From assembly GCA_965222715.1 (NCBI GenBank), contig OZ244961.1:140609-204608 (forward strand): 64,000 nucleotides of DNA, read 5' to 3'. Below the pieces are notes generated by a model. The model had not been told where the DNA came from. It did no database searches and saw nothing but the letters and a program-made list of their open reading frames with translations. Below are positions 5,554 through 61,980 of this stretch, one piece after another. The translations under genes and the position numbers were made by a program. The stretch is from Minisyncoccota bacterium (lineage in GTDB: Bacteria > Patescibacteriota > Minisyncoccia > Phycocordibacterales > JABMNX01). The first letter of the stretch is position 1. Every line of letters begins with the position of its first letter.

Positions 5554-6072
5554 ATGCAAGCTAAAGAAATAAGTATTGAGAAGGCAAAAAAAGATAAACT
5601 CTTTTATTTTGTCGCAAACGTGGTGGTGTATAACCCTGAGAATAATAAGTGTCTCATCTTGAAGCGTCACGAGAGAGAAGTGGCACATCCAAACAAGTGG
5701 GCAGTTCCCGGAGGAAAGCTTGAATGGCAGAACCTTGATATTAACAACCCAACGAGAATGAATGGTGACGTTATTGATTTTGAAGATGCTGTTGAAGATC
5801 TTTTGGTTCGAGAGACGAAAGAGGAATCAAATGTTTCTATCGAGAAAAAACTGCACTACATAAACAGCGTTGCATTCATTCGCCCTGATGGCATTCCGGT
5901 TGTGTTGGTAAAATTTGCTGCAAAATATACTGGTGGAGAAGTTGTGCTTGAAGAAGGAGGCTTCACTAATTTTGCATGGGTTGATGAAAAAGAGGTAGCG
6001 GAATACGAATGTATTGATGGTGTACAAGAAGAGGTGCGAGAAACCATACAGCACTTCAAGAAACATAACTAA
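5554..6072 (+). CDS. NUDIX hydrolase (tandem paralog 2)
   Basis: 172 aa, same length and collinear similarity to the 5024-5542 product; Nudix box RETKEESNV. Confidence 0.55.
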   Translation: MQAKEISIEKAKKDKLFYFVANVVVYNPENNKCLILKRHEREVAHPNKWAVPGGKLEWQNLDINNPTRMNGDVIDFEDAVEDLLVRETKEESNVSIEKKLHYINSVAFIRPDGIPVVLVKFAAKYTGGEVVLEEGGFTNFAWVDEKEVAEYECIDGVQEEVRETIQHFKKHN

Positions 6073-6074
6073 CT

Positions 6075-6971
6075 ATGGCGACAGTCTATACACATAAAGA
6101 TAGCAATATTAGAAAGACGTGGTTTTTAATGCTTACGTTTTTCTTGGTAGTGGTAGGAGTTGCATGGAGTTTTTCATACATTCTTGAGAGTCCAGTCATC
6201 CTTTGGGTTGCGGTTATTTTTAGTGTACTGATGAATGTTGGCGCATACTGGTACTCAGATAAGTTGGTCCTTAAAATGTCAGGTGCCGAACCCGTCTCTC
6301 GTGAATCGCACCGAGAACTATGGAATATACTTGAAAACCTCTCTATTACCGCCGGGCTGCCAATGCCAAAACTCTATATTATTAATGACGCAGCACCAAA
6401 CGCATTTGCAACAGGTCGTGATCCAGAGCATGCAGTTGTTGCAGTGACCACCGGATTACTTTCTATGCTTGATAGAAACGAGCTTGAGGGGGTAGTTGCG
6501 CACGAATTAGCGCATATTGGAAATCGTGACATGTTAGTGATGACAGTGGTAGTAGTACTTCTTGGTTTTATCACGCTTCTTTCTGATTTCTTTTTGCGGA
6601 TGACCATGTTCGGTGGGAATAATAGTGATCGTGATGGTCGTATGCAAATCATAATGGTTGTTGCAGGACTCGCACTTGCCATTCTCTCACCGATTATCGC
6701 AAAACTCATTCAACTTGCTATCTCACGGAAGCGAGAGTTTCTTGCTGATGCATCAGGTGCACTTCTAACTCGCTATCCTGAAGGGCTTGCCTCAGCACTT
6801 GAGAAGATTAGTGGATACAAAGAGCCGATGCGACGAGCAAACCATGCGACAGCACACCTCTTCATCTCAAACCCGTTTGGGAAAAGTACGAGAGGAAAGT
6901 TTTTGAATACATTATTCATGACCCACCCACCCACAGAAGAGCGGATTGCTGCGCTGCGAAGTAGCAGCTAA
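6075..6971 (+). CDS. htpX: zinc metalloprotease HtpX (M48 family)
   Basis: 298 aa, four TM segments, HELAHIGNRD HEXXH motif. Confidence 0.85.
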   Translation: MATVYTHKDSNIRKTWFLMLTFFLVVVGVAWSFSYILESPVILWVAVIFSVLMNVGAYWYSDKLVLKMSGAEPVSRESHRELWNILENLSITAGLPMPKLYIINDAAPNAFATGRDPEHAVVAVTTGLLSMLDRNELEGVVAHELAHIGNRDMLVMTVVVVLLGFITLLSDFFLRMTMFGGNNSDRDGRMQIIMVVAGLALAILSPIIAKLIQLAISRKREFLADASGALLTRYPEGLASALEKISGYKEPMRRANHATAHLFISNPFGKSTRGKFLNTLFMTHPPTEERIAALRSSS

Positions 6972-6975
6972 ACTC

Positions 6976-7004
6976 TTGACGTACTAGATGTATAGAAGTA
7001 TAAT
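6976..7004 (+). promoter_or_regulatory. sigma70-type promoter (TTGACG-17-TATAAT) preceding GC-rich unit
   Basis: TTGACG 6976-6981, TATAAT 6999-7004. Confidence 0.4.
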
Positions 7005-7011
7005 CCTCGTT

Positions 7012-7315
7012 GGTTTAGTTTGGTTTACATAGAGGCTTCAAGAAAGGGGAAGTGACAAATGGGTGCGACTGTTGAGGTTATTGTAAAGAGGCGTTTCGGA
7101 AGGGATGAGCGAAAGGTGGCTCAGAGACGGGCGGCTCGTCCGTGTGTACCGAGTTCGATCCGGAACGTCAGACCAGCAAGAATCGCAACCTCGGGGGTTG
7201 TCAGTGCGGCGGCCAGGATGGCAGGTGTCGCAAGAGTCCGCGGCATATGAAACATAAGCCGGACTGGATGCGCCAGTACTAGGGGGCACAATCACGAAAT
7301 ATCACAAAATACATG
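7012..7315 (+). ncRNA. GC-rich ~300-nt transcription unit of unknown nature (candidate structured ncRNA, or Arg-rich 63-aa small ORF 7059-7250)
   Basis: bounded by promoter 6976-7004 and terminator 7316-7350; GC far above genome background; weak resemblance to SRP-RNA helix-8 (GTCAGACCAGCAAGAATCGCAACC) not confirmable by eye. Confidence 0.25.
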
Positions 7316-7350
7316 GGGGCGGTTTGAGATAACTGCCCCTTTTGATTTGT
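7316..7350 (+). terminator. rho-independent terminator (GGGGCGG...CTGCCCC + T-run)
   Basis: GC stem followed by TTTTGATTTGTTTTTT. Confidence 0.6.
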
Positions 7351-7403
7351 TTTTTAAATTCTCATAACCAATTCTCTTAGTTCGGGATGGATTAGGATAT
7401 ATA

Positions 7404-7432
7404 TTGACTATTTAATCAAAATATTATATAAT
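7404..7432 (+). promoter_or_regulatory. sigma70-type promoter (TTGACT-17-TATAAT) for the GGDEF gene
   Basis: TTGACT 7404-7409, TATAAT 7427-7432; AGGAGG RBS 7467-7472 then ATG 7481. Confidence 0.5.
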
Positions 7433-7480
7433 TAAATTTAGATCTAGTCAGTATACTCATGCTACGAGGAGGTGTACATT

Positions 7481-8155
7481 ATGAGTGACAGTACCGCTAT
7501 TCCGCGTGTTGGAGATATCTCTGAGCGCGAGCTCGAGAACCTTCCGCACAAAACTCTGGTCGCGTTCGCACTGCGTGCGCAGTCGTTGGCAACGATCGAC
7601 GACATGACCCAGATTCTGAACCATCGCGCGTTCGAAGAAGAGGCCACTCGCCACTTCAACCGTATGAAGCGTAATGGTGATGAAGGGGTGATGCTTCTTC
7701 TGGACATCGACCTCTTCAAGAGGGTTAACGACACCTACGGCCACCTCGGCGGTAATGAGGTGATCAAAAAAGTTGCCAGCATCATGGAGGCATGTACTCG
7801 GCCCAGCGATCTCTGTGGACGCTATGGTGGGGAGGAGTTCATCATCTTCCTTCCCAATACCGGTAAGCAAGAAAGCAAGCTGGTCGCCGAGCGGATCCGC
7901 ACCATGGTCGAAGGGTCCACGGTGAAGTTCGAATCCCACGACATTTCATGCACGGTGAGTATCGGCCTCGCACTTCTTTCTGATGCGGAAGATCTCGAAG
8001 GCCTGATAGGTTCGGCCGACCGAGCGCTCTACAAGGCAAAAGGCGGAGGTCGGAATCGTGTCGTCACGGCTGATGCGAATCTCAACGAAAAGCGTCGCTT
8101 TACTGGAAGCAGCGATCGTCGTGGTCAAGATGTTCCGGATCGTCGGAAATCCTAA
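7481..8155 (+). CDS. diguanylate cyclase (GGDEF domain), GC-rich, likely horizontally acquired
   Basis: GGEEF active-site motif, RxxD I-site (RPSD) five residues upstream, conserved DxLT..NRR-like segments; codon GC well above neighbours; track start 7472 is a GTG inside the RBS, so ATG 7481 is preferred. Confidence 0.8.
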   Translation: MSDSTAIPRVGDISERELENLPHKTLVAFALRAQSLATIDDMTQILNHRAFEEEATRHFNRMKRNGDEGVMLLLDIDLFKRVNDTYGHLGGNEVIKKVASIMEACTRPSDLCGRYGGEEFIIFLPNTGKQESKLVAERIRTMVEGSTVKFESHDISCTVSIGLALLSDAEDLEGLIGSADRALYKAKGGGRNRVVTADANLNEKRRFTGSSDRRGQDVPDRRKS

Positions 8156-8178
8156 ACATTCATCTCGAATGAAAACTA

Positions 8179-8212
8179 GCGACCTTGGTGTACCCAAGGT
8201 CGTTTTCTTTTT
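8179..8212 (+). terminator. rho-independent terminator (GCGACCTTGG tgtac CCAAGGTCG + T-run)
   Basis: 10-bp stem and T-run after GGDEF stop. Confidence 0.6.
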
Positions 8213-8240
8213 GTTACTTTAAGTAAGTTATATTACAGTG

Positions 8241-8269
8241 GTATAGATTTTGGAGAGGTGGCAGAGTGG
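8241..8269 (+). repeat. direct repeat of the tRNA-Ser(GGA) 5' end plus 7 upstream bp (truncated tRNA 5' duplicate)
   Basis: GTATA.ATTTTGGAGAGGTGGCAGAGTGG recurs at 8359-8389; followed by a 13-bp perfect hairpin GAAGAAACACAAActgcTTTGTGTTTCTTC. Confidence 0.7.
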
Positions 8270-8367
8270 AAGAAACACAAACTGCTTTGTGTTTCTTCCG
8301 AAGCGTAGCGAAGGAGGACGACCCGAAGCCACCTCGTCCTGTAAGGCCAAAATACGAAGTATATTTT

Positions 8368-8455
<88 letters not shown>

Positions 8456-8504
8456 ATCTAACAGCTAGCACGAAGACCTTAATGCTTTAGTGCTTAGATA
8501 AATT

Positions 8505-9056
8505 ATGACTTCAAGAAAGATTAAAGTTCCAGAATTAGATTCATACTCTCATTGGCCGGAAAAGCCATATCAGTGGATGCTGACAGGATTAATTCATACG
8601 ATTCAAAAAGTTGATGAGGTAGAGGCAAATTATTTAGTTGCTCTTGGTTTGGTATGCTACACAGAATTTATGGGTCATGAGGTTTTGAAATTTAGAAAAT
8701 TACCAAATGGTTCTGGACAGGGTAAAAATGCATTTAACTTATTCGTTGGAGAATATATGGGTTATCAGGAGTTGTTAGATAAGCATGAAGAAGTTTATGA
8801 TTGGTTTAGGTGTGGTTTGTGTCATGAGTTCAAAATTAAAAATATCGATGGAGGAACTGAAAGTGGTGTATTCCATTTTTTTGTTGGAAATTCTGAAGAA
8901 GTAAAAAAAGTAAAGAAATTAGTTGATGCAGATCCAACAAAAGGTATAGCAGTTTCTAGTCAAGGGAAAAGAATTTTGTTTATAGAACCTTACCTGCACG
9001 ACTTTCAAAAAGGGGTAGAAAAATTCTTGAAAGAGTCCGGAAAAATTGAAATGTGA
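8505..9056 (+). CDS. hypothetical protein (very AT-rich, Cys/His-containing)
   Basis: 183-aa ORF right after tRNA-Ser; no recognisable domain. Confidence 0.45.
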   Translation: MTSRKIKVPELDSYSHWPEKPYQWMLTGLIHTIQKVDEVEANYLVALGLVCYTEFMGHEVLKFRKLPNGSGQGKNAFNLFVGEYMGYQELLDKHEEVYDWFRCGLCHEFKIKNIDGGTESGVFHFFVGNSEEVKKVKKLVDADPTKGIAVSSQGKRILFIEPYLHDFQKGVEKFLKESGKIEM

Positions 9057-9191
9057 GAAAATCTTGATGCGCACGAGGACCTTAATTTCAATAAACTAAA
9101 ATAGTTAAAAATAACCTTGCTGGGCTTGACCGACCACGGTTCCAGCCCGAGGTAGCCCGCATTTGTTTTAATACGTGTATACTTTATAAAT

Positions 9192-9413
9192 ATGAACGAA
9201 ATTAAAAAAGGAATGTATCGCCACTACAAAGGAGGGGAGTACGAAGTGTTAGGTGTTGCAAAACATTCTGAGACGCTTGAAGATGTGGTGGTATATCGCC
9301 ACCCAGGGAATGAACTCTCAGAATTGTGGGTGCGCCCACTTGAGATGTTTACTGAGACAGTGGAGGTAGATGGAAAAGAAGTGCCTCGTTTTGAATATAG
9401 CAAGGGTCTCTAA
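9192..9413 (+). CDS. DUF1653 family protein
   Basis: 73 aa, YRHYKGGEYEV...HSET motif characteristic of DUF1653. Confidence 0.6.
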   Translation: MNEIKKGMYRHYKGGEYEVLGVAKHSETLEDVVVYRHPGNELSELWVRPLEMFTETVEVDGKEVPRFEYSKGL

Positions 9414-9423
9414 ATCTTCTTTA

Positions 9424-10140
9424 CTACACACCTAGTGTATTAAGTAGTGTCTCTCGTTCTTTTTCTGTAAGTTCTCGTTTCTCTCCTACTTTCAGGTTTC
9501 CAAGTTTAAGGTGCATAATACGCACGCGTTTAAGGTCTTCAACTTGGTAGCCAAACGCAGCAGCCATACGTCTAATTTGGTGTTTTTTACCTTCGGTAAG
9601 GATGATTGAAAATGTTCTCTCGCCAAGTTTTTTCACTTTTGCCTCTTTGGTGCGATACCCCTCAATGTTTACTCCGCGACTGAGTCCGTTAATAACGGTG
9701 CCAGTTATTCGTTTATCAACTTTGACCACATACTCTTTTTCATGCGGATATTTTGGATTTAAAAGTCTATCAACAATACGCCCATCGTTCGTTAGGAGCA
9801 TGAGCCCATGAGATGCTTTGTCTAGTCTCCCCACAGGGAAGAATGCCTTACCTAATCCAGAGATGTCCTCAACAGACTGCTCTCCCTTTTGTGGATTATG
9901 TGAGACAACACCTCTTGGTTTGTTGTAGAGCACATACTGATAGCTTTTTGAAAGCTTCTCTACATTTTTAGACACTTCAACCACATCTTTTTTTTCTACC
10001 TGTGCACCGAGTTCTGCAACAACTCCATTAATACGCACATCACCACGCTTGATCATTTCATCTGCTTTTCTGCGCGAACAGTATCCTTTGAGGTAGAGGT
10101 AGCGATTAATGCGTATTGGAAATTCAATCAGATCTTCCAT
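9424..10140 (-). CDS. rRNA pseudouridine synthase (RsuA/RluB family, S4 domain)
   Basis: 238 aa, N-terminal S4 RNA-binding segment, catalytic PVGRLDKASHGLMLLTNDG motif. Confidence 0.8.
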   Translation of the reverse strand: MEDLIEFPIRINRYLYLKGYCSRRKADEMIKRGDVRINGVVAELGAQVEKKDVVEVSKNVEKLSKSYQYVLYNKPRGVVSHNPQKGEQSVEDISGLGKAFFPVGRLDKASHGLMLLTNDGRIVDRLLNPKYPHEKEYVVKVDKRITGTVINGLSRGVNIEGYRTKEAKVKKLGERTFSIILTEGKKHQIRRMAAAFGYQVEDLKRVRIMHLKLGNLKVGEKRELTEKERETLLNTLGV

Positions 10141-40475: not shown

Positions 40476-40612
40476 AAAAATGTGTGAGAGGTGCTGTGCT
40501 ACTGAACAATGTCTCTAGAGCCTTTCTTCGTATCAGTAGGGTTAGCAGCACTTCTCGCTAACAAAAAACCCGCATCTACGGGGTAGCAGTACTATACTTT
40601 GCTGGTGCATAA

Positions 40613-40657
40613 AAGTCAAAAGTAAAACCGCCCCAAGCACTTCTGCGCTTGGGGCGG
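40613..40657 (-). terminator. GC-rich intrinsic terminator for the GC-rich secreted-protein gene
   Basis: minus-strand CCGCCCCAAGC gcagaagt GCTTGGGGCGG followed by TTTTACTTTT. Confidence 0.6.
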
Positions 40658-40710
40658 GGGTTGAACGGGAACGACGATTTGATCGTCAGAGAGACTTCGG
40701 CACCGGCCGA

Positions 40711-41229
40711 TCAGGATGCGATCGTCAGACCGCTCCAGCCGCCGGACAGCAGGGTCGTCTTCAGCAACAGGCCGGACGTACCGGAAGTGTCGATGAAGTC
40801 GTTGTTGGTGTCGAACGCCGCGACCTCCAGCGCGGAGGGCGGCATCTTGGCCAGGCCGGCGGTCGTGCCGACGTTCAGCTGATCGAAGTCCATGAAGGCG
40901 CTCACCTGGTCGAGATCGTGGATCACGACGTTCGGCGGGTTGCCGATGTCGGCGCCGTCGGAATACAGAAGCCACTGGGTCCGGTCGAAGTCGGACAGAT
41001 CGCCGATGTCGGCCAGCATGGTCTGCTGGCGCGCGGCCGGCGTCGTCGAGTCGTTGGTCGTGACCGAGCAGTCGAACGCCGCGACCTCCACCGCGGTGCC
41101 GTTCAGGCCGATGTCGACGTCGAGCGCATTGCAGTCGTTACTGGCGAGCGCCGCGTTCGGCGGTGCCATGGCGACGAAACCCAAGATGGCGGCTGCCATC
41201 AGCGGGGTCATGAAGAAACGTTTCCTCAT
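40711..41229 (-). CDS. secreted hypothetical protein with internal EVAAFD repeat, GC-rich (likely horizontally acquired)
   Basis: 172 aa from ATG 41229 (GGGAG RBS); signal peptide MRKRFFMTPLMAAAILGFVAMAPPNAALA; about 63% GC versus about 39% background. Confidence 0.55.
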   Translation of the reverse strand: MRKRFFMTPLMAAAILGFVAMAPPNAALASNDCNALDVDIGLNGTAVEVAAFDCSVTTNDSTTPAARQQTMLADIGDLSDFDRTQWLLYSDGADIGNPPNVVIHDLDQVSAFMDFDQLNVGTTAGLAKMPPSALEVAAFDTNNDFIDTSGTSGLLLKTTLLSGGWSGLTIAS

Positions 41230-41377
41230 TCGCTTTTCTCCCATTCGAGTGTGAAGAACAGTGCCTCACTGTTGAGACCTGCCCAGTGTATCATATAAAG
41301 AAATATTGTCAAGTCCTCACATATGTGGTGTGGAAAACAACTTTATTACTTAAGAATGTGTGTAAAATGAAAGAAAT

Positions 41378-60693: not shown

Positions 60694-61980
60694 TCAACAC
60701 TTCAAACCAAGTTCCTCGACAACGATACGCCGCACTTCTTGCGCAGGATCATCGGCGTTGATGATTTGTCTGCCAGAGACGATTGCGTTTGCGCCAGCTT
60801 CCATTGCTTCAGTTGGGGCCATCACACGTTTTTGGTCGTTCGTTTCAGCTTCGGGGGAACGAACTCCTGGGGTAACTCCAAAGAGATCAGGATATTTCCC
60901 CTTAACTTTCCCAATCTCTTTGGGCGAACAGACGATACTGCCGACATTGACTGCGTCGACAAGCTCTACGAGACGAAGAACTTGCGTCATCGACTTGCGG
61001 CCAAAAATTTCACCACAGTCATCGTCGCTGAGGGATGTGAGCACCGTTACGGCAAGAGTTTTGATACCGTGCGGGTGGAGCATATCCACTGCCTTTTGCA
61101 TCATCGCTCGACCGCCCGATGCATGGATCGTTAGCGCCCATGGATAGAATTTGGGATCCATGTCGATGATATGTTGGCAGTAGTTCCCGATCGTGTTGGG
61201 TATGTCATGCAGCTTCGGGTCGAGCATGACAGGACCGTACACGGCCAAGTCTTCAGCGATGGCAAAGCCCTCTTTGAGGAGCAGGTCGTTGACCTTGAGG
61301 CCACAACCTGTTCCTTGGAGTGAGGAAGCCAGCTGGAGCGCTGTTTGACGATTCATTCCATCAAGCGCCACAATGACTTTTGGATCTTCGTGGCCAATTG
61401 GAACGAAGATCTCTTTCCGAACGTCGTGCAGCGTTGCACCAGCCCAGACGTCCATATCTACGCCGTGTTCTTGGAACATTTGTTGCCACCCCTGCTCGCG
61501 ATCAACAAGGACCACAAGTATTGGTGTTGCACCAGCGGCGCGGATTGCATGATAAGCATCCAGTTTGGATGCCCCGTCGGTAATCACGTCGTCGAGGATG
61601 GCGACGCGTTCTCCGGCAAAGATCTCACCGATCAACTTAGCATTCCCGACTCGGCCGCTCTTCTCAGTTTCTCGGATAGTGGCATACGGAATACCGGTCA
61701 TGTACGAAACAACACCGGCGATACCACTTACCGAAGAAGGAACCTCAACAAATCGATCGACGTCGAGTCGTCGAAGAGCGTTGGCGTAAATGCGTGCCAA
61801 CGGTCCAGTTGATTCCGGGGCCGAGCGATGGTCACGTATGTTGATGTAGGTGTCGGTCGTGCCACCTTTTTTGAGTGGCAGACCTCTTGAAGGGTCGTAT
61901 TTCAACAACCCAGGATGAGATCGGATGAGCTGAATTGCGGCCCGTTGTTCAGGTCGCGTGAGAAATGTCACATGCTCCAC
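60694..61980 (-). CDS. bifunctional orotate phosphoribosyltransferase / orotidine-5'-phosphate decarboxylase (PyrE-PyrF fusion), GC-rich
   Basis: 428 aa: N-terminal PRTase (VAILDDVITDGAS), C-terminal OMP decarboxylase (VIVALDG...LKVND); GC about 53% versus about 39% background. Confidence 0.75.
   Translation of the reverse strand: MEHVTFLTRPEQRAAIQLIRSHPGLLKYDPSRGLPLKKGGTTDTYINIRDHRSAPESTGPLARIYANALRRLDVDRFVEVPSSVSGIAGVVSYMTGIPYATIRETEKSGRVGNAKLIGEIFAGERVAILDDVITDGASKLDAYHAIRAAGATPILVVLVDREQGWQQMFQEHGVDMDVWAGATLHDVRKEIFVPIGHEDPKVIVALDGMNRQTALQLASSLQGTGCGLKVNDLLLKEGFAIAEDLAVYGPVMLDPKLHDIPNTIGNYCQHIIDMDPKFYPWALTIHASGGRAMMQKAVDMLHPHGIKTLAVTVLTSLSDDDCGEIFGRKSMTQVLRLVELVDAVNVGSIVCSPKEIGKVKGKYPDLFGVTPGVRSPEAETNDQKRVMAPTEAMEAGANAIVSGRQIINADDPAQEVRRIVVEELGLKC

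Follow-up and report, generated by a model that had tools for sequence, protein, structure and literature searches.

In the GGDEF enzyme PleD, residues D327, K332, E370, K442 and R446 have assigned roles in metal and phosphate binding, while the guanine base is bound by Asn335 together with Asp344 (PMC12943098). The position of Asp344 is occupied by Ser in the Hypr enzymes, which make cyclic GMP-AMP (cGAMP), as exemplified by S348 of GacA (PMC6456294, PMC12943098), and natural Hypr enzymes with Ser or Thr at this position carry only the signature GGDE[F/Y] (PMC6456294). Here, we describe a gene for a stand-alone GGDEF protein of 224 amino acids (aa), located in a GC-rich tract between htpX and a tRNA-Ser(GGA) gene in a stretch of 64,000 nucleotides (hereafter the window) of contig OZ244961.1 of a Minisyncoccota bacterium. 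The window is a part of the approx. 617-kb contig and all window-scale results refer to its 64 kb. We lean toward a reading in which the locus is typical of a Kaiserbacteria-like clade (Parcubacteria/Paceibacteria), the window allele of the GGDEF gene derives from homologous replacement by the segment of a relative with higher GC content, and a tRNA fragment found beside it reflects a separate event.

Conservation and composition of the htpX-tRNA-Ser locus

Scanning metagenomes and one genome per species with HtpX as the anchor yielded 160 loci; 147 of these extend at least 400 nt beyond htpX, and 91 of the 147 have a same-strand tRNA-Ser(GGA) on the downstream side of htpX in the fetched sequence. 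A GGDEF gene directly follows htpX in approx. 14 distinct lineages of Parcubacteria. Only two full-length homologs of the window GGDEF protein were identified, encoded in loci L001 and L010. Both are stand-alone proteins (225 and 228 aa) sharing 46-47% identity with the window protein, and one of them is annotated as originating from Candidatus Kaiserbacteria. Their matches span 92-93% of the query, compared with 69-87% for the other matches listed, and thus take in the N- and C-terminal extensions. Both contigs are ordered as the window (GroES-GroEL, LemA, NUDIX, NUDIX, HtpX, a gap of approx. 450-490 nt, GGDEF), and downstream of the GGDEF gene L001 also matches the window (tRNA-Ser(GGA), RluB, DUF192, RNR). 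The order LemA-NUDIX-NUDIX-HtpX-(unit)-GGDEF-tRNA-Ser...RluB-DUF192-RNR, in which the unit is a stretch of 300 nt discussed below, is common to the window, L001, L010 and L012, and in two of the nearest relatives both the small unit and the GGDEF gene lie between htpX and tRNA-Ser. A GGDEF gene at this position is therefore an old trait common to these genomes and not a window-specific insertion. The first-pass annotation of the window had expected a donor among high-GC Proteobacteria or Actinobacteria; BLASTP pointed elsewhere, as the closest homologs, at 46-47% identity over the full length, are those of Kaiserbacteria.

Two types of htpX-linked GGDEF proteins were distinguished: type A, comprising those of the window, L001 and L010, and type B, which is widespread in Parcubacteria, has an N-terminal coiled coil with the motif DLIHDxLTGLKTR and mostly lacks RxxD. 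L012, whose HtpX is 84% identical to that of the window, encodes only type B, 28 nt after htpX, and L010 carries tandem GGDEF genes after htpX (7115-8616), type A followed by type B, which suggests that the ancestral locus held both types, with one type or the other lost later in individual lineages. Distances among the four nearest genomes are roughly equal (HtpX, 82-88%; LemA, 77-80% identity). Identity amounts to 54.7% between the type-A proteins of L001 and L010, 54.4% between the type-B proteins of L010 and L012, and 47% between the window protein and either type-A relative; judged from these sequences, the GGDEF proteins evolve fast at this genome distance. In a neighbor-joining tree, the window protein groups with the type-A proteins of L001 and L010, and this clade is placed among sensor-linked GGDEF proteins of other bacteria, apart from the type-B clade of Parcubacteria. 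The HtpX scan of metagenomes gave no relative closer than 72%, an exact look-up of the window GGDEF and HtpX found no second assembly with either sequence, and L001-L009 are identical in sequence, leaving no variation to use in a strain comparison.

The mean GC content of the window is 42.4%. The span 7040-8160 reaches 51.1%, a value attained by only 2.3% of 1121-nt segments, and the remaining segments with at least this value lie at 39-41 and 60-61 kb. The span is composed of the following parts:

7040-7314: GC-rich block 1 (54.5% GC)
7341-7480: AT-rich promoter spacer (26.4% GC)
7481-8155: GC-rich block 2, i.e., the GGDEF coding sequence (54.7% GC)

An abrupt rise from 39% to well over 55% had previously been described for 7040-8160. 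The rise itself was recovered, but from a background of 42.4% and to approx. 54.5% in the two blocks, with values above 55% reached only locally (peak across 200-nt segments, 59.5%). A check of GC and codon usage, also proposed there, showed the GGDEF gene to be compositionally foreign to the genome, with a GC content at third codon positions (GC3) of 0.61 vs. the window mean of 0.35. Within the catalytic domain GC3 is 0.62-0.75, while that of the neighboring genes is 0.30-0.47. The latter range holds for htpX over its full length, with no increase toward the 3' end, and GC3 drops back over the final 25 codons of the GGDEF gene; the anomalous tract therefore extends from ~7030 to ~8100. Codon preference is shifted in every amino-acid family checked (ATC 9/13, TTC 7/8, CTG 6/21), and in all window genes except the GGDEF gene and two other GC-rich ORFs (open reading frames) GC3 is at most 0.43, groEL included. 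Every other htpX-linked GGDEF gene matches the GC content of its own genome (L001, 51/49%; L010, 52/50%; L012, 33/37%; eleven more alike), and the gene is therefore compositionally odd only in the window genome. Homologs of the same GC content at the same locus in sister genomes had been named as a sign of vertical inheritance; the sister genomes do carry the gene at the same locus, but with a GC content equal to that of their own genomes. Related loci of 53-62% GC exist (L035, L027, L039 and L021).

The small ORF and the GGDEF gene are the only ORFs with support as genes in the interval between htpX and tRNA-Ser, whose features, with those of its borders, are as follows:

6075-6971, + strand: htpX, M48 zinc metalloprotease, the conserved left anchor (Peptidase_M48, 3.8e-33; NCBIfam HtpX, 2.4e-100)
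6976-7004, + strand: promoter P1, TTGACG-17-TATAAT, 5 nt past the htpX stop codon (11/12 consensus positions)
7043-7049, + strand: Shine-Dalgarno sequence AAAGGGG of the small gene
7059-7282, + strand: small basic-protein gene, ~74 codons, broken by a -1 frame change (three-frame translation)
7110-7116, + strand: CGA AAG G, junction of the two frames of the small gene, as read from the sequence
7315-7350, + strand: intrinsic terminator T1 of the small gene (predicted at 7315-7340; 10-bp stem with 6 G-C pairs, then a T-run)
7404-7432, + strand: promoter P2, TTGACT-17-TATAAT, within the 26% GC spacer (11/12 positions)
7467-7472, + strand: ribosome-binding site AGGAGG of the GGDEF gene, 8 nt before the ATG at 7481
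7481-8155, + strand: gene of the type-A stand-alone GGDEF diguanylate cyclase, 224 aa (Pfam PF00990, 4.8e-44)
7754-7756, + strand: AAT codon of Asn92, at the position of PleD D344 (GGNEV vs. AGDEV in the alignment to 3ign and WspR)
8178-8204, scoring on both strands: terminator T2 past the GGDEF gene (stems of 11 bp on + and 9 bp on -, each with a T-run)
8244-8345, + strand: orphan tRNA-Ser 5' fragment (-8 to +18) with a hairpin and a 3' strand (direct and inverted repeats)
8368-8455, + strand: intact tRNA-Ser(GGA), the conserved right anchor (ARAGORN; Rfam tRNA, 62.4 bits)
8505-9056: orf183, directly 3' of tRNA-Ser, 183 aa, 33.7% GC, GC3 0.255 (below the genome average)

P1 and T1 bear out the earlier description of a 300-nt unit with its own promoter and terminator, and the same holds for a GGDEF gene under a near-perfect TTGACT-17-TATAAT promoter and AGGAGG in AT-rich DNA (11/12 match, 26.4% GC spacer). 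Promoters equivalent to P1 were found right after htpX in L001 (11/12) and L047 (12/12), and a promoter of the TTGAC...TATAGTATAAT type occupies the position equivalent to P2 in both L001 and L010. Based on these predicted signals, which are strong, the GGDEF gene forms a transcription unit of its own. A 14-nt inverted repeat (7156-7169 and 8129-8142) was judged to be at chance level, with ~0.2 such pairs expected by our own estimate.

Elsewhere in the window, a GC island of 63-68% at 40600-41250 is far more extreme than the GGDEF stretch, and the import of GC-rich DNA is therefore not unique to the GGDEF locus. The two other compositional outliers of the window are:

40711-41244, - strand: GC-rich ORF of 177 aa with a hydrophobic N-terminus, GC3 0.89, the sole ORF of the island at 40.6-41.25 kb
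60694-61701, - strand: orotidine-5'-phosphate decarboxylase-like gene (PF00215, 1.2e-37), GC3 0.545, the third outlier

The 177-aa ORF product had no homolog beyond its own entry in a database of 5.8e9 proteins and no domain match in Pfam, NCBIfam, PADLOC or PHROGs.

The small htpX-linked gene and the tRNA-Ser fragment

The N-terminal frame of the small gene starts at the ATG at 7059 and is used for the first 19 codons, to ~7115, and the motifs FDPERQ and SPRHMKHK are encoded in the -1 frame, which is open at 7109-7282. One extra A at CGA AAG G would restore a gene of 74 codons. According to the title of a paper by Mejlhede et al. (1999), cited in PMC5009743, CGA AAG is a -1 ribosomal shift site of Bacillus subtilis cdd. 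The identical hexamer occurs in the window in the right frame and at the place where the two frames must join; however, intact homologs of the small gene need no shift, and the loss of one A from the A-run explains the break equally well. The frame break may thus mark a pseudogene, an assembly error or programmed -1 shifting, and in the last case the small gene would be expressed in the window through frameshifting at CGA AAG. A GC-rich hairpin is located downstream of this site (~7126-7146).

The layout of the unit is common to the window, L001 and L010: a near-consensus promoter a few bases past the htpX stop codon, an ATG preceded by a G-rich Shine-Dalgarno sequence, an ORF 71-84 codons long, and then a strong terminator. 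L047, whose HtpX is 64% identical, has the unit between htpX and tRNA-Ser with no GGDEF gene. A C-terminal motif R-x-[RM]-K-[HY]-[KP] is present at the end of the unit in the window, L001, L010 and L047. Homologs of the small gene were located at 4999-5214 in L047 and 681-896 in L171. The 71-aa product of L047 ends with RERKHKGNLG, compared with RNRKHKGGLF in L001, and the shared residues RKHKG are encoded by differing synonymous codons (AGG/CGA, AAG/AAA, GGG/GGA). Differences between the small genes of L047 and L171 number 5, 5 and 17 at codon positions 1, 2 and 3, against 25, 16 and 65 in htpX; a third-position excess of this kind, seen in htpX as well, marks a gene that is translated and subject to purifying selection. 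A profile built from L047 and L171 aligned in hhalign with the L001 product (P=0.0018) and, more weakly, with the window peptide (P=0.037; here at the same residue numbers). The htpX-linked small basic proteins (P0121, P0122 and P0123) are defined here by an ORF of 70-85 codons right after htpX with expression signals of its own, a central phi-D/S-P-x-K/R motif and a C-terminal R-x-R-K-H-K-G motif; the window unit, a candidate member, has the layout and both motifs, the latter split over two frames. A profile search of 5.8e9 proteins and of 1.84e9 representative proteins returned only the seeds and one close relative (P0123), apart from a repetitive 842-aa protein judged to be spurious, and the small protein had no match in Pfam, NCBIfam, PADLOC or PHROGs. 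A GC-rich ORF following htpX in L046 could not be demonstrated to be a homolog (P=0.31). In L047 and L171, a hairpin in the 5' untranslated region and another spanning the stop codon carry one compensatory change each.

From its sequence features, the 300-nt unit is probably a lineage-restricted gene of a small basic protein and not a known RNA. That it is a non-coding structured RNA seems improbable, even though a strong promoter and a terminator are dedicated to it, its GC content stands out in AT-rich genomes in the manner of structural RNAs, and its reading frame is broken in the window copy. In three genomes, the fold of the plus strand is marginally more stable than those of shuffled sequences (z=-1.9, -2.4 and -1.7), but these scores take in the terminator hairpin. 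The unit had no Rfam match at E<=1: with Rfam 15, the only matches in positions 6000-9500 of the window overlap the tRNA-Ser fragment and gene (8265-8498), and the units of L001 and L010 gave nothing except a weak CsrC match at the L001 terminator (E=0.055). Neither a transfer-messenger RNA (ARAGORN) nor a signal recognition particle RNA, 6S RNA or riboswitch (by eye) fitted the unit. The window, L001 and L010 units show no detectable nucleotide homology to each other (z ~0 in local alignments vs. shuffles; no blastn match), and the concentration of L047/L171 differences at third codon positions, together with a motif kept via synonymous codons, also speaks against an RNA.

At the other end of the interval, a 31-nt direct repeat (8244-8274 vs. 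8360-8390; 90% identity, 23-nt exact core) duplicates the 5' end of tRNA-Ser. The orphan fragment ends in the D-loop and continues directly as a perfect 14-bp hairpin (8268-8299); next come CCGA and a 3' strand that can pair with the acceptor sequence, and this 94-nt piece is far more stably folded than shuffled sequences (z=-4.6). In L140, a distant Parcubacterium, the design of fragment, A/T-rich hairpin and CCGA occurs twice in tandem (5919-6258). In L118 (2476-2770), a small ORF, GIY-YIG-like by eye only, lies between the tRNA fragment and the intact tRNA, L015 (5041-5205) contains 5' and internal tRNA-Ser fragments, and four further loci contain 3' fragments. With tblastn, no GGDEF gene was detected in the fetched loci of L140, L118, L015 or the four with 3' fragments, and no copy of the repeat was found near 6976-7040, left of the GC-rich segment. 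Since both copies lie to the right of the segment and fragments occur in loci with no GGDEF gene detected, the repeat is the scar of a separate, recurrent event. Of the earlier view of the repeat as the recombination scar of an island, the repeat thus stands (with a length of 31 nt), while its role as an island edge does not, both copies being downstream. These sequences suggest that a small element targeting tRNA-Ser(GGA) leaves such fragments. On the 3' side of the tRNA, orf183, which L001 and L012 lack at the corresponding place and for which Pfam, NCBIfam, PADLOC and PHROGs gave no family match, may be variable cargo.

In a limited literature search, we found no description of (i) the recurrent htpX-GGDEF-tRNA-Ser(GGA) arrangement of Parcubacteria, (ii) a tiny, fast-evolving, GC-rich protein gene tied to htpX, or (iii) tRNA-Ser(GGA) as a hotspot of fragment-leaving events.

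Origin of the GGDEF allele

We infer that the simplest reading of the composition anomaly is homologous replacement by the segment of a higher-GC relative. A segment of ~1.15 kb (~7030-8100) would have entered the 42% GC genome in this way, and its donor would be a related lineage of ~55% GC or more carrying the same locus, and not a member of a distant phylum. Several points weigh against this reading. No allele that could be the donor was found; with the best homologs at only 46-47% identity, it is composition alone that argues for the transfer. The divergence of the window GGDEF protein is only modestly above that between L001 and L010, as simple vertical inheritance would also allow. In the low-GC genomes of L047 and L171, too, the small gene is GC-rich (GC3 ~0.63 vs. 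0.26-0.31), so that for this block GC-richness of the gene itself is a credible alternative to transfer. As regards the gene products, the homology of the window small ORF to the others is weak (hhalign P=0.037), the small ORFs compared pairwise gave no significant BLASTP or phmmer match, and Asn92 may lower or alter the activity of the cyclase.

Purely vertical inheritance, with GC-richness kept by selection (mRNA structure, composition of the small gene) or by local bias, is an unlikely explanation, though the most probable of the alternatives. The GC3 of the small gene in L047 and L171 has remained high after 12.5% nucleotide divergence. In the consensus fold of these two sequences, 4 changes are compensatory, 12 are of the wobble type and no pair is broken (a two-sequence method biased in this direction), and the amino-acid divergence of the GGDEF proteins fits orthology. 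Against it, no other htpX-linked GGDEF gene deviates from the GC content of its own genome, and every amino-acid family takes part in the codon shift, which is absent from other window genes, including groEL. Strong-to-weak and weak-to-strong base changes between L047 and L171 are balanced (12 vs. 14), and a decaying GC-rich ancestor would give the same result. There is a smaller chance still, which we rate as slim, that the contig is an assembly chimera, switching after htpX to a co-occurring Kaiserbacteria population of higher GC content and back near tRNA-Ser. The contig is metagenome-derived, tRNA-Ser is so conserved that different populations could share it, and the duplicated tRNA 5' end adjoins the right edge; however, relatives show no detectable similarity at the nucleotide level around the left edge, which leaves an assembler no common k-mer on which to cross over, htpX has a uniform GC3 up to its stop codon, and the tRNA fragment with its hairpin is a real structure, recurrent across independent assemblies.

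The explanation that we hold to be least probable, though by a narrow margin, is that a high-GC island from a distant donor (Proteobacteria or Actinobacteria) integrated at tRNA-Ser and was then domesticated, leaving the tRNA 5' repeat as a scar. Foreign GC3 and codon usage of the GGDEF gene agree with it, as do the fragment scars that tRNA-Ser genes of this group indeed bear, and the position of the type-A clade among sensor-linked GGDEF proteins of other bacteria allows for an old acquisition by the type-A ancestor. Synteny with the relatives already largely refutes it, though, and the best full-length homologs are of Kaiserbacteria, the interval from htpX to the tRNA encodes neither an integrase nor any other mobility gene, the two repeat copies are on one side of the GGDEF gene, and L140 has the same fragment design with no GGDEF gene detected in the fetched locus. 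As for a phage source, viral contigs hold only generic GGDEF proteins of at most 43% identity. The window resembles tRNA-targeted genomic islands in that its composition deviates beside a tRNA gene of which a piece is repeated, but it differs from them in having no integrase and in a repeat that represents the tRNA 5' end and does not flank the segment; moreover, such islands are absent from the site in relatives, whereas the window segment is present in L001 and L010, with type B in L012. The notion of a domesticated foreign gene thus survives as regards codon usage, and fails as regards an insertion peculiar to this genome, the gene having the same position in the nearest relatives. A sharp GC anomaly beside a tRNA gene in a genome of the candidate phyla radiation (CPR) need not mean insertion, and the ancestral gene order with an imported-looking allele points to recombination between related ultra-small bacteria differing in GC content.

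The GGDEF protein and its described counterparts

The GGDEF protein matched PF00990 (E=4.8e-44; 150.4 bits vs. a cut-off of 23.8), and no other domain, as well as TIGR00254 (154 bits vs. a cut-off of 37.4). Alignment to 3ign and WspR showed the catalytic motifs in place: DIDLFK (75-80), GGEEF (116-120) and KAKGGGRN (185-192). The I-site RPSD (107-110) lies 5 residues before GGEEF (RPSD-LCGRY-GGEEF). A membrane segment was not predicted, since no 19-mer is sufficiently hydrophobic. The domain, motif and hydrophobicity scans hence agree with the first-pass annotation, which had described a cytoplasmic protein of 224 aa with an intact GGEEF motif and RxxD I-site and no sensor. An AlphaFold model computed with 30 homologs (predicted local distance difference test score, pLDDT, 91) consists of helices 15-19 and 23-38 and a cyclase fold extending to ~197, followed by an Arg-rich C-terminal tail (RRFTGSSDRR) in a part modeled at pLDDT 55-67 (residues 200-224). 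On the evidence of its motifs, the protein is predicted to be sensor-less, with an intact catalytic core and I-site. By analogy with known cyclases, it would make c-di-GMP (cyclic di-GMP) constitutively from the strong sigma-70-type promoter, the N-terminal helices of the model could provide the dimerization that GGDEF catalysis requires, and binding of c-di-GMP at the RxxD I-site would cap the output.

The guanine-recognition pair is incomplete: Asn335 (PleD numbering) is retained in the motif VND and Asp344 is replaced by Asn92, with the assignment to the domain family unaffected. The Asn92 codon, AAT, is one transition away from GAT. The D344 column is almost invariantly Asp in alignment A7, and among the best 120 homologs it contains 118 Asp, one Ser and one Asn, the latter in the window protein only. 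Strict GTP specificity is thus not assured, and Asn92 could loosen this specificity or weaken base binding. Asn and Asp have side chains of equal length, and Asn offers both a hydrogen-bond donor and an acceptor. Given its side-chain length, Asn92 should therefore satisfy the distance requirement for GGEEF enzymes (PMC6456294). The variation affects the same nucleotide-choice position as in the Hypr enzymes GacA and Bd0367, which make 3',3'-cGAMP; these have Ser or Thr at D344, and the window protein, with Asn next to GGEEF, consequently falls outside the Hypr group. We see little probability that Asn92 beside GGEEF confers a relaxed or altered purine choice, e.g., synthesis of cGAMP or other mixed cyclic dinucleotides. 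Should it do so, the enzyme would represent a new natural specificity class of GGDEF proteins, in a minimal CPR genome. The variant offers a cheap and direct experimental handle on the nucleotide choice of GGDEF enzymes.

The absence of a c-di-GMP effector or phosphodiesterase gene from the window, noted earlier, was confirmed by two scans: none of the 56 window ORFs of at least 90 aa matched PilZ, EAL or HD-GYP in Pfam, and no c-di-GMP riboswitch in the window reached the Rfam gathering score. A limited literature search on c-di-GMP in CPR bacteria found no paper mentioning GGDEF or c-di-GMP. Three ORFs met in the scan of the window ORFs match T4SS_pilin (PF18895; 47473-48371 and 57578-58411).

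The closest described counterparts of the window protein are short stalk-plus-GGDEF proteins with an I-site, e.g., the GGDEF domain of Marinobacter aquaeolei (3ign), DgcB of Caulobacter (6ttr, 6tts) and SiaD of Pseudomonas (7e6g). Their fold is the same (Foldseek E 9e-20 to 2e-17), with 3ign, to which the sequence matches at 2.4e-37 and 44% identity, as the top match of the model (template modeling score of 0.96 on the target). As in these counterparts, N-terminal helices take the place of a sensor in the window protein; no partner such as SiaC was identified for it. It differs from all of these proteins in the Asn found in place of the guanine-recognizing Asp, in a 25-residue Arg-rich tail common only to the window protein and its two Kaiserbacteria orthologs, and in its host, which has a CPR genome of ~0.6 Mb. 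The metal- and phosphate-binding residues, GGEEF and RxxD are shared with them, and by these features the window protein belongs to a known kind of enzyme, the GGDEF diguanylate cyclases, with c-di-GMP synthesis as its predicted activity.

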